Virus record (IMG/VR): IMGVR_UViG_3300045988_122866
Location: 90,982-154,981 of that record
Direction: 5' to 3' (one strand)
Length of the DNA: 64,000 nt
Origin: a virus
Both the position numbers and the translations under genes were made by a program. Of this stretch, positions 37,646 through 38,471 are shown one piece after another; position 1 is the first letter of the stretch, and every line of letters begins with the position of its first letter. The notes under the pieces were generated by a model that did no database searches, had not been told where the DNA came from, and saw only the letters and a program-made list of their open reading frames with translations.

Positions 37646-38471
37646 TGGTGCGGGCGACGAGACTCGAACTCGTACGAGGGTCTACCTCATGGGATTTTCT
37701 TACTACTCTATGTCACCATAGCCACATCTTTGTGTTGTAGTCTGGAATACGTCTTTATCATATGCACGACTTGCACTTAGATAGTTGGTATATACTCTCT
37801 ACACATTTATTTGGAACAATTTTTTCCACGATAAGAAGAAGTTTTTGCATGACAATTTGGACATAATAATTGGAAATTATCTAATTCATTATGAAAATGA
37901 TTTCCGTCTTTATGATGAAGTTCTAAAGGAATTGGTTCTCCTAACCATTCGGTTAACCCACAACATTCACATTTATATTCTTTATAACCTTCATCAAGAA
38001 GTTTTTTTCTTACTTTATTACTTTGTATATCAATACTTTTTTCTAAGTATTCTAACAAAGATAATCCATGCCCATTAGGTTTTGACAACCCTTTACAACC
38101 TCGATTTCCGGCATATTCAAGACCAAGCTTTTTTAATACTGGATTAATTGTCTTAGGATTACAACCCAATTCTCTTGCCATTTGAGCTTTAGTTTTGCCT
38201 TCAGCAATCCATTGCTCAATTTCTTCTTTGCGTTCTAAAATATCAGTTCTCATTTATATTACCTCTCTTTCATTATTATTTAAAAATTAAAAGAGATATT
38301 TTAATGAGTGTCGTCCAATTTTTTAGAATGTGCTCCAAAACTTAGCACGGCGTTCTCTTAGCCATTCGCCGTTTTAGCCAACTTCTACTCTAAGAGTTTC
38401 CTCTTAGGCACTCCATTTTAATGTTTGCTAAGTCAAAAGTCCCAGGCGTCTGCCAGTTCCGCCACGCCCGC
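37646..38471 (-). tRNA. class II tRNA gene split by a ~743-nt insertion (probable group I intron) carrying the HNH endonuclease gene; 5' exon 38439-38471, 3' exon 37646-37695
   Basis: 5' exon GCGGGCG-TG-GCGG-AACTGGCAGA-CGCC-T-GGGAC pairs with 3' exon ATCCC..long variable arm..ACGAGTTCGAGTCTCGT-CGCCCGC-A-CCA (acceptor 7/7 complementary). Confidence 0.6.
37807..38253 (-). CDS. HNH homing endonuclease (encoded inside the insertion that splits a tRNA gene)
   Basis: CECCG..GEP..LELHHKDGNHFHN..LLCPNCH HNH motif; lies between tRNA exons at 38439-38471 and 37646-37695. Confidence 0.7.
   Translation of the reverse strand: MRTDILERKEEIEQWIAEGKTKAQMARELGCNPKTINPVLKKLGLEYAGNRGCKGLSKPNGHGLSLLEYLEKSIDIQSNKVRKKLLDEGYKEYKCECCGLTEWLGEPIPLELHHKDGNHFHNELDNFQLLCPNCHAKTSSYRGKNCSK

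Follow-up and report, generated by a model that had tools for sequence, protein, structure and literature searches.

A phage tRNA-Leu(UAA) gene interrupted between U34 and A35 by a probable mobile group I intron with an HNH endonuclease gene

Within an array of phage tRNA genes, one gene is cut in two by a long insertion that contains an endonuclease gene: is the insertion an intron that can be removed from the RNA, and which tRNA would its removal restore? The locus lies in a 64,000-nucleotide (nt) stretch of viral DNA (IMG/VR record IMGVR_UViG_3300045988_122866, positions 90,982 to 154,981), the whole of which is called the window here and supplies the coordinates used below. The window holds a minus-strand array of more than 20 tRNA genes. 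A reading of the sequence without database searches (the original prediction) had singled out one of them as split by an insertion of approximately 740 nt with an HNH homing endonuclease open reading frame (ORF), a candidate group I intron. We find that the insertion, 738 nt at 38436-37699, is very probably a mobile group I intron that separates U34 from A35 in a tRNA-Leu(UAA) gene, and its splicing is predicted. It is an element of an already known kind, here found in a phage; knowledge of group I introns at this position of tRNA-Leu(UAA) dates from 1990. The split gene, the intron and all parts of the intron described below are on the minus strand (-).

Intron-less alleles fix the boundaries of the insertion and the identity of the tRNA

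With its intron option, ARAGORN called one split tRNA, at 37646-38471 (-), whose outer ends match those originally predicted exactly; the default ARAGORN mode and the Rfam tRNA model both missed the gene. The 5' half (38471-38437) is a perfect class II tRNA half, GCGGGCG-UG-GCGG...CGCC-UGGGA-CUU, and this 35-nt sequence is present in nine IMG/VR phage contigs of 65-197 kb, uninterrupted in four and interrupted at an identical position in five. In the uninterrupted alleles (contigs L001, L002, L003 and L005), the identical 35-mer is followed directly by AAAATCCC; the junction reads …GGGACUU|AAAAUCCC… in RNA form and GGGACTT|AAAATCCCA in DNA form (at greater length, ...GGGACTT|AAAATCCCATGAGG...). 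The insertion in the five interrupted contigs starts right after the same T. Comparison of the window with the intron-less contig L001 by blastn gave 98.5% identity over 2064 nt and 97.9% over 1307 nt, and the sole break in the alignment was the 738-nt insert, across which the L001 coordinates are contiguous (2153 then 2152). Therefore, the insertion corresponds to 38436-37699. The window is distinguished from its intron-less relatives by the exon variants GGUAGACCC and UUCGAGUCUCG.

The 5' exon of the gene thus occupies 38437-38471 (35 nt) and comprises the acceptor strand GCGGGCG, the D-arm, the 5' strand of the anticodon stem (UGGGA) and the loop residues C32, U33 and U34. The intron, at 37699-38436, starts with UUGAC and ends with GUAAG, its terminal guanosine (omegaG) being 37699; these limits are those set by the intron-less alleles. 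The 3' exon, at 37646-37698, provides A35 to A38, the 3' strand of the anticodon stem (UCCCA), a long variable arm, the T-arm, the acceptor strand CGCCCGC, A73 and an encoded CCA. The inner exon ends first proposed, 38439 and 37695, were therefore 2-3 nt off, and the anticodon stem given as GGGAC is replaced by UGGGA/UCCCA. That a tRNA gene is split by an insertion of about 740 nt is borne out by the intron-less alleles, the exact 738-nt break and the ARAGORN split call. The split tRNA is far beyond chance, and the features as first noted are present in the sequence.

When the exons were joined in silico (38437 to 37698), ARAGORN called an 88-nt tRNA-Leu(UAA) with the mature anticodon loop C-U-U-A-A-A-A (CUU|AAAA) and the anticodon UAA. 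The original prediction had offered UGA (Ser) or UUA instead, and ARAGORN in intron mode labels the gene tRNA-Stop(tta) with a 736-nt intron at position 38, a label that arises because this mode imposes position 37/38 on the intron. If the insertion lay at another point of the loop, the gene could encode an ochre suppressor with the anticodon UUA or a tRNA-Ser(UGA); in favour of this are the ARAGORN label and the presence of another window tRNA with the anticodon CUA. However, the uninterrupted alleles read CUUAAAA, that is, UAA for leucine; the UUA and UGA junctions put the intron end out of register and disagree with the presence/absence polymorphism; and the class II tRNA body is called as Leu after joining. 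We consider the chance of such a host gene to be negligible. Because the uninterrupted alleles read CUUAAAA, the tRNA is tRNA-Leu(UAA) and the insertion falls between U34 and A35. This is the classical group I site in tRNA-Leu, written CUU/a...g/AAAA by Williams (10.1101/2020.01.27.920355) and listed as classical in a bacterial survey (PMC13011429). UUA makes up 34% of the leucine codons in the long ORFs of the window and 11 of 19 in the HNH ORF. No second Leu(UAA) tRNA gene was found in the window, and therefore the phage relies on splicing for any such tRNA of its own.

A family of phage tRNA-Leu introns shares a covarying group I core

Homologs were harvested from IMG/VR by scans with two core 15-mers and then with one 17-mer motif, followed by ARAGORN in intron mode and application of the U(-1)/omegaG rule. 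This yielded at least 83 introns, at least 77 of them unique (196-1087 nt), at ...ACU(U/C)|...G|AAAAU of phage tRNA-Leu genes. The window intron follows a U (U-1) able to form a U-G wobble with the guide GGAGU, and its last base, 37699, is a G at a boundary set independently by the intron-less alleles. Homologs with C at -1 (Leu CAA) retain the same guide.

The group I covariance model RF00028 (cut-off, 50 bits) gave full-length matches (model positions 1-253) among the compact homologs. L157 (61.5 bits; E, 3e-13), L273 (54.3 bits; E, 5e-11) and L083 (52.4 bits; E, 1e-12) scored above the cut-off, and L272 (47.4 bits; E, 5e-9) and L170 (43.3 bits; E, 9e-8) scored just under it. In L272, the sequences of the P1 loop and of L5 are the same as those of the window (P denotes paired regions, J joining segments and L loops). 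In the alignment of L083 to the model, P3, P4, P6, P8, J8/7-P7' and P9 fall on blocks conserved in the window copy, with AAGACAUAGUCC placed on the J8/7-P7' consensus of the model.

In the window copy, the guide GGAGU of P1 (38410-38414) pairs with the exon sequence ACUU (38440-38437) and the first intron base, U1 (38436). The pairs are A-U, C-G, U-A and U-G, followed by U1-G, and U34 (U-1) forms the wobble at the splice site; no variation in the GAG of the guide was seen among the 48 aligned cores. P2 is a hairpin, CUAAGAG-GAAA-CUCUUAG (38390-38407), with its GAAA tetraloop at 38397-38400. The 5' strand of P3, GUUGG (38378-38382), has as its partner CCAAC (37784-37788), as indicated by covariation, and J3/4 reads CUAAA in the window copy. 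P4, ACGGCG/CGCCGU (38347-38372), closes the 14-nt loop AAUGGCUAAGAGAA (38366-38353), where relatives carry a P5 hairpin. The 5' strand of P6, UUUGGA (38334-38339), pairs with UCCAAA (37810-37815); the loop between them is a 518-nt insert that includes the ORF, the last codons of which (TCC AAA TAA) are the 3' strand of P6. J6/7 (UAAAUGUGUAGA) and the P7 5' strand GAGUAU (37792-37797) together span 37792-37809 and form the most conserved block of the family. P8 (UAUC/GAUA; 37756-37783) holds an upper hairpin and a sequence resembling the 11-nt receptor, UCUAAG...UAUGA, which is a compensated variant of the canonical CCUAAG...UAUGG found in most relatives. J8/7 (AAGAC) and the P7 3' strand GUAUUC (37745-37750) follow at 37745-37755, and P3 and P7 make up the group I pseudoknot. 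The P9 region is a three-way junction (37702-37741) of P9 (ACUAC/GUAGU), P9a (CACA-AAGA-UGUG; 37723-37734) and P9b (CUAUG-GUGA-CAUAG; 37708-37721).

A first helix assignment had taken CCAGACUACA as the 'R' element of P7 and CUAUG-GUGA-CAUAG as P8, and it was dropped on comparing variants; P7 was settled as GAGUAU/GUAUUC, and the two sequences belong to P9 and P9b. No complementarity for a P10 between the 3' exon and the guide region was found. The exons are able to pair with each other in the anticodon stem.

We aligned 48 non-identical cores (guide to 3' exon, P6 interior removed) with MAFFT and projected the helix model from the window onto the columns. Over the 45 modelled pairs of P2, P3, P4, P7, P8 and P9, 96.5% of cells were standard pairs, compared with 23-43% when the partner was slid by 1-3 columns as a control. 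Changes on both sides were seen in 33 of the 45 pairs (11-16 in slid controls), and the covariation score was 0.403 (0.036-0.080 in slid controls). None of 500 column shuffles reached the observed values, although the aligned sequences are related and these counts are not probabilities. All nine helices were at least 85.8% paired across the 48 cores, and all 45 pairs are intact in the window copy. Changes on both sides affected 7 of 7 pairs in P2 and 6 of 6 in P4, the latter being 99.3% paired. P3 was 100% paired with three of its five pairs compensatory, one of them occurring as UA 19, CG 18, AU 6 and GC 3 times. P7 was 100% paired, and its third pair covaries (CG 34, GU 7, GC 6); P8 was also 100% paired, with three of four pairs compensatory. 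P9, P9a and P9b (helices 7-9) were 94-99% paired, and 11 of their 14 pairs had changes on both sides.

P6 was tested on 32 distinct variants, with any insert, in which the 12 nt after GCUAA pair with the 13 nt that end just before the UAAAUG of J6/7. The summed energy with own partners was -265.8 kcal/mol, versus a permuted mean of -97.8 (standard deviation, 12.1), and 0 of 2000 permutations reached the own-partner sum. The architecture P2-P3-P4-P6-P7-P8-P9, including the P3/P7 pseudoknot, is supported by covariation. The original prediction had made its case hang on a P3-P7 core, and P3, P4, P6, P7, P8 and P9 were all identified. Many phages retain this core with compensatory changes, implying that the fold is under selection. 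By architecture and insertion site only, the intron may be described as IC3-like.

Covariation supports a pairing of the P1 loop with L5, found in place of P5

In the subclass of introns with a short L5, to which the window copy belongs, intron nt 3-11, which lie in the P1 loop just past the splice site, pair with L5. In the window, the P1-loop strand CUUAGC (38427-38432) is complementary to GCUAAG of L5 (38357-38362). Complementary pairs occur at the same place in 11 of 12 fully distinct sequence types. Besides CUUAGC/GCUAAG they include UGUAUUC/GAAUACA, UGUGUUU/AAACACA, UGUUAUC/GAUAACA and CUUGGC/GCCAAG, as well as CCCUGAU/AUCAGGG, CCUAAC/GUUAGG, CAUUGAC/GUCAAUG and UCUGUC/GGCAGA. When own and crossed duplex energies of the 12 types were compared in a derangement test, the own sum was -110.4 kcal/mol against a mean of -47.7 (standard deviation, 7.1), with 0 of 5000 derangements reaching the own sum. 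A pairing of the intron 5' end (UGUAUUC) with the P7 5' strand was rejected, as it did not covary in the other types; the true partner is L5.

To our knowledge, the pairing of L1 with L5 has not been described before, and it may be a new structural variant. Among core-motif matches in cellular genomes that were parsed as tRNA-Leu 34/35 introns, the short-L5 subclass was found in only two, and at least one of these (L317) is very probably the phage contig L135 mis-binned.

The intron encodes a predicted HNH endonuclease and varies between related phages

As originally predicted, an HNH ORF at 37807-38253 lies between the exons and leaves about 290 nt of other sequence: the ORF is intact, encodes 148 amino acids and leaves 291 nt, 183 nt upstream and 108 nt downstream. 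The protein has an N-terminal helix-turn-helix (HTH_38 in Pfam; E, 1.7e-5) and a C-terminal CxxC...HH...N...CxxCH motif, visible as CECCG...HHKDGN...N...CPNCH. Homing endonucleases annotated in T5-like phages are 51-55% identical to it by tblastn, in alignments covering 97-99% of the protein, and by blastn the ORF matches hegA / F-TflIV of Bf23 and T5 with approximately 73% nucleotide identity over 435 nt. Among the annotated phage genomes of INPHARED, only the HNH ORF was matched and the ribozyme parts were left uncovered.

Among the closest phages, the insertion exists in three versions at this site. The window type, with an intact HNH ORF, is 738 nt long and is shared by L004 and L009; L007 and L008 carry a 764-nt version with in-frame TAG codons in the HNH ORF; and L006 carries a 349-nt version without an ORF. 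The flanks of the intron-plus contigs L004 and L009 and of the intron-minus contigs L001, L003, L005 and L002 are 93-99% identical to those of the window. Related phages vary at the same locus in the presence of the intron and in the presence and type of its ORF. Across the family, ORFs sit in the P1 loop, P6, P8 or P9. Of the at least 77 unique phage copies, about 50 measure 661 nt or more, and an inserted ORF is seen in most of these long copies. The simplest history of the family is repeated entry of freestanding endonuclease genes into ORF-less introns, followed by homing.

Could the insertion be a plain endonuclease-gene cassette that inactivates the tRNA gene and has no ribozyme, like the freestanding T5-type HNH genes among tRNA genes? 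The closest relatives of the protein are indeed freestanding endonucleases of T5-like phages, and another window tRNA, at 58231-58779, is split by an endonuclease ORF without a visible ribozyme. However, the non-coding part of the insert (291 nt) has homology to ORF-less introns with RF00028 matches and with the covariation of a group I core, and ORF-less versions occupy the same site (L006, L021). A cassette of this kind is already contradicted by the present data, and we hold it to be very improbable.

Several further observations concern the expression and decoding of the ORF. RNAfold of 38310-38240 predicts a hairpin, UAUCUCUUUU...AAAGAGAGGUA (38260-38298), that encloses the Shine-Dalgarno sequence of the ORF, GAGAGG, and might restrain translation of the endonuclease. 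The leader between P6 and the HNH start (38290-38345), …UUUUGG…UCUAAAAAAUUGGAC…, is conserved across otherwise different introns (L008, L018, L012, L200 and L241), which suggests that the endonuclease gene and a regulatory leader of its own move together as a cassette. The HNH ORFs of the L007 and L008 introns have three in-frame TAG codons where the window protein has R, I and E, which suggests that these relatives recode TAG. A 90-nt tRNA of the window, at 49868-49957 (-), has the anticodon CUA (amber-suppressor type), and the long ORFs of the window show no in-frame TAG.

Arguments against an intron that splices

A number of results speak against a mobile group I intron that splices. RF00028, the model with which the original prediction was to be checked, gave no match in a 1.15-kb slice around the window copy, either at the gathering threshold or at E<=10, and none on the ORF-less introns L021, L046 and L006 (L006 at E<=1), of which L021 and L046 are compact. 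The P5 region is cut to a 14-nt loop that lacks both a P5 helix and a receptor, and P9a of the window has the loop AAGA, versus GAAA in relatives; therefore, one of the two tetraloop-receptor contacts of the Azoarcus type is missing. The conservation of P7 was partly imposed by the search, as the harvest motif includes the P7 5' strand. The helix model was taken from the window sequence, itself part of the alignment, and was thereby favoured over the slid registers in percent paired. The counts of compensatory changes are unaffected by the harvest motif or by the origin of the model. Finally, PF01844 (HNH) scored 18.8 bits on the ORF (E, 0.0018), just below its cut-off of 21.4. The covariance-model check gave no match on the window copy, with its 518-nt insert in the P6 loop, and reached the cut-off on three compact homologs. 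No seed sequence of RF00028 is bacterial (Williams preprint, 10.1101/2020.01.27.920355), which partly accounts for its patchy sensitivity, and we did not take its silence on the window as refutation because compact homologs score above the threshold.

These results raise the question of whether the insertion is a relic, that is, a descendant of a group I intron that no longer splices autonomously, either in this copy or throughout the short-P5 subclass. In that case the tRNA-Leu(UAA) gene would be dead, or reliant on a protein cofactor or on the L1-L5 pairing together with a host factor. Such a relic could account for the failure of RF00028 on the window and on ORF-less L021, L046 and L006, for the reduced P5 and the P9a loop that is not GAAA, and for a G-U pair in P7 of the window where most relatives have C-G. 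Set against this, none of the 45 modelled pairs is broken in the window copy, many phages keep this core with compensatory changes, indicating selection on the fold, and the exons are perfectly conserved. Moreover, the L1-L5 pairing covaries over 12 types and resembles a maintained replacement contact rather than decay, and the window, where 34% of leucine codons are UUA, has no other Leu(UAA) gene that we could find. We therefore rate a relic as improbable. The identification of a group I intron with an HNH homing endonuclease, as first proposed, stands on the intron-less alleles, the U(-1)/omegaG termini, the covariation in 48 cores, the RF00028 matches of compact homologs and the full-length similarity of the ORF.

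Relation to known introns and endonucleases

Compared by description, the window intron shares with the cyanobacterial and chloroplast (Anabaena) tRNA-Leu intron its host gene, the site U34|A35, the U(-1)/omegaG termini and the order of core helices, and several of its core strings appear to resemble those of the Anabaena sequence. It differs from the cyanobacterial intron in its location in a phage, in the HNH ORF in P6, in its length (738 nt versus about 250 nt) and in having in place of P5 a 14-nt loop that pairs with the P1 loop. The Azoarcus tRNA-Ile(CAU) intron, of subgroup IC3, is likewise an anticodon-loop tRNA intron with a P2 GAAA loop and an 11-nt-type receptor in P8/J8. That intron has L2/J8 and L9/J5 contacts between GAAA loops and 11-nt receptors (PMC4705646). 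The contact between the L2 GAAA and the P8 receptor appears to be retained in the window intron, whereas the L9/J5 contact is lacking (the P5/J5 receptor is absent) and the L1-L5 pairing is found in that region. The Azoarcus intron also differs in host tRNA and insertion position and has no ORF.

An HNH-bearing group I intron that interrupts tRNA-Leu(UAA) in Bacteroidota was reported in a 2026 survey (PMC13011429); compared by description, it has the same host tRNA, endonuclease superfamily and length class (>500 nt), but it comes from complete bacterial genomes, whereas the window element and its relatives are on phage contigs. Like the T4 td and nrdB-type introns, the window intron is phage-borne, has its ORF looped out of a peripheral helix (P6) and has an ORF end that overlaps a core pairing. 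Presence/absence polymorphism between related phages, as seen here, is typical of homing (PMC3984707, PMC2988022). The T4 introns differ in being located in protein-coding genes and in belonging to subgroup IA2. HegA (F-TflIV) and T5-like HNH enzymes are, like the window protein, tied to phage tRNA gene regions, with 51-55% amino acid identity; in contrast, the T5 enzymes are freestanding between tRNA genes, and the window ORF is inside an intron inside a tRNA gene.

Proposed mechanism and wider reading

We propose that the ribozyme would fold after transcription, with the P2 GAAA loop probably docking on the receptor-like P8 and the P1 loop pairing with the loop that replaces P5, which would hold the substrate helix against the P4-P6 domain. 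Exogenous guanosine would attack after U34, omegaG would then take its place and the exons would be ligated, giving an 88-nt tRNA-Leu(UAA) that would read UUA. The HNH protein would cut intron-less tRNA-Leu alleles of co-infecting relatives, and repair would then insert a copy of the intron (homing). An ORF-less intron probably gained the endonuclease gene, given that there are compact introns with near-identical cores and that freestanding endonucleases of T5-like phages are the protein's closest relatives.

A broader reading, which we put forward tentatively and regard as possible without favouring it, is that the window intron belongs to a largely phage-borne radiation of the classical tRNA-Leu intron, in which different endonuclease genes repeatedly entered different loops (P1, P6, P8 and P9) and the L9/J5 contact was replaced by the covarying pairing of the P1 loop with L5. 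The tRNA-Leu intron has long been discussed as ancient and immobile. If the broader reading is true, large phages with tRNA-Leu genes of their own would act as a mobile reservoir and would plausibly carry the intron in its horizontal spread, a concrete and testable route for its lateral movement, and the L1-L5 pairing would be a previously undescribed way to dock the substrate helix.

Conserved protein-coding genes are the usual location of phage group I introns (PMC3984707), and endonuclease-bearing tRNA introns are rare in complete bacterial genomes (PMC13011429). Less familiar, therefore, are the at least 77 distinct copies in phage tRNA-Leu genes from one IMG/VR motif scan, approximately two-thirds of them long enough for an endonuclease gene. 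A literature search of incomplete coverage returned nothing specific on phage tRNA group I introns. Genes that are missed by default ARAGORN and Rfam or mislabelled by ARAGORN in intron mode would distort tRNA inventories and calls of codon reassignment in phage metagenomics.

Other interrupted tRNA genes and genomic context

Three further tRNA genes of the same array are interrupted by sequences that are not group I introns, two by nested tRNA-like inserts and one by an endonuclease ORF without a ribozyme; they are potentially more novel than the tRNA-Leu intron. The anticodon loop of a tRNA-Lys(UUU)-like gene at 36285-36427 (-) contains a 68-nt insert (CUU|...|UUAA), which is below the size of a group I intron and is present in four of four IMG/VR relatives. 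The insert resembles a miniature tRNA, with a 7-bp terminal stem (GAUGAAA/UUUCAUC), D-arm-like and T-arm-like hairpins (AUGAG-UUCAAAU-CUCAU) and, at the 3' end, one position that varies between relatives (G/A/U) followed by CCA, and ARAGORN in mitochondrial mode calls it tRNA-like. Without it, the gene reads as a clean tRNA-Lys(UUU), and the array has no other gene of that isotype. One idea is that the inner element is excised by RNase P and 3' processing and that the halves are rejoined by an RNA ligase. Comparable mini-tRNA-like inserts of 60-112 nt lie in tRNA-Lys(UUU) loops of L031 (1806-1944), L078 (3660-3797), L092 (703-848), L214 (1798-1941), L127 (8013-8150) and L054 (6832-7018), each with its own, perfectly complementary 7-bp terminal stem and most then with N-CCA. 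In L012 (4972-5124), the anticodon loop of a tRNA-Arg contains an entire tRNA-Phe(GAA) that ARAGORN calls in default mode. The second nested case in the window is a tRNA-Gln-like gene at 50220-50418 (-), missed by default ARAGORN and Rfam, with an anticodon-loop insert of approximately 123 nt that has a 7-bp stem (CUCAAAA/UUUUGAG) and a T-arm-like hairpin, UUGGUGCAAGUCCAA. Once this insert is removed in silico, ARAGORN calls tRNA-Gln with the anticodon CUG or UUG, depending on the junction. We found nothing specific in the literature on nested tRNA-like inserts.

The third gene, tRNA-Asp(GUC)-like, at 58231-58779 (-), is split at 35/36 (CUGU|U...G|CAA) by approximately 470 nt, nearly all of which is an intact PD-(D/E)XK endonuclease ORF (58706-58287; PF11645; E, 3e-32) with a leader of about 60 nt and a tail of 13 nt. 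The insert has no visible group I core and no RF00028 match. The insertion is also present in L396 and L397, where changes in the ORF are mostly synonymous, and no insert-free allele was found. The split gene could be a dead tRNA, could contain an intron with a core overlapping the ORF or could be restored by an unknown removal mechanism. The 3' end of this ORF (...GAAGTAGTAAGAAAATGGTAA; 58290-58310) contains AGTAGTAAGAAAAT, an exact 14-mer match to 37694-37707, that is, to the last 9 nt of the tRNA-Leu intron and the first 5 nt of its 3' exon; the match could be due to chance or could be a recombination scar.

A RAGATH-33 RNA (RF03102) at 37504-37632 (-), with 126.8 bits against a threshold of 120.4, begins 13 nt downstream of the CCA end of tRNA-Leu. 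The intron-less alleles of L001, L003 and L005 are followed by it as well, L002 lacks it, and therefore it is independent of the intron; our literature search found nothing specific on RAGATH-33. Two odd tRNA-like genes were seen in the window, one at 52783-52857 (-) that was detected by Rfam only (46 bits) and not by ARAGORN and one at 59878-59948 (-) that ARAGORN called with a 2-nt 'anticodon' (tt).

The window is 33% G+C and encodes gyrase A and B, an ATP-dependent ligase, PhoH and RNase H; its long ORFs are intact under the standard code. At the protein level, metagenomic phage records of 462-735 kb are its best relatives in the annotated phage collection. A P-loop kinase of the AAA_33 family (E, 2e-22; 19461-19982, -) and a calcineurin-like phosphoesterase (18916-19473, -) are encoded by adjacent, overlapping genes and resemble a split polynucleotide kinase/phosphatase end-healing module. 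Two more metallophosphoesterases and a protein with an ATP-dependent ligase domain are encoded at 20740-21456, 26958-27548 and 6131-7345. These end-healing-like and ligase genes may be relevant to tRNA repair or to the rejoining of interrupted tRNAs. Directly beside the tRNA array are genes for an 832-amino-acid protein with major-vault-protein shoulder and repeat domains (30743-33241, -) and a 512-amino-acid DUF2828/DUF7788 protein (34190-35728, -); the vault-like protein has 39-41% identical homologs in the metagenomic phage records LR756500-LR756503, of 462-735 kb. In the tRNA region of the related phage contig L021, a ROOL RNA (RF03087; 290 bits) was detected at 7507-8092 (-).

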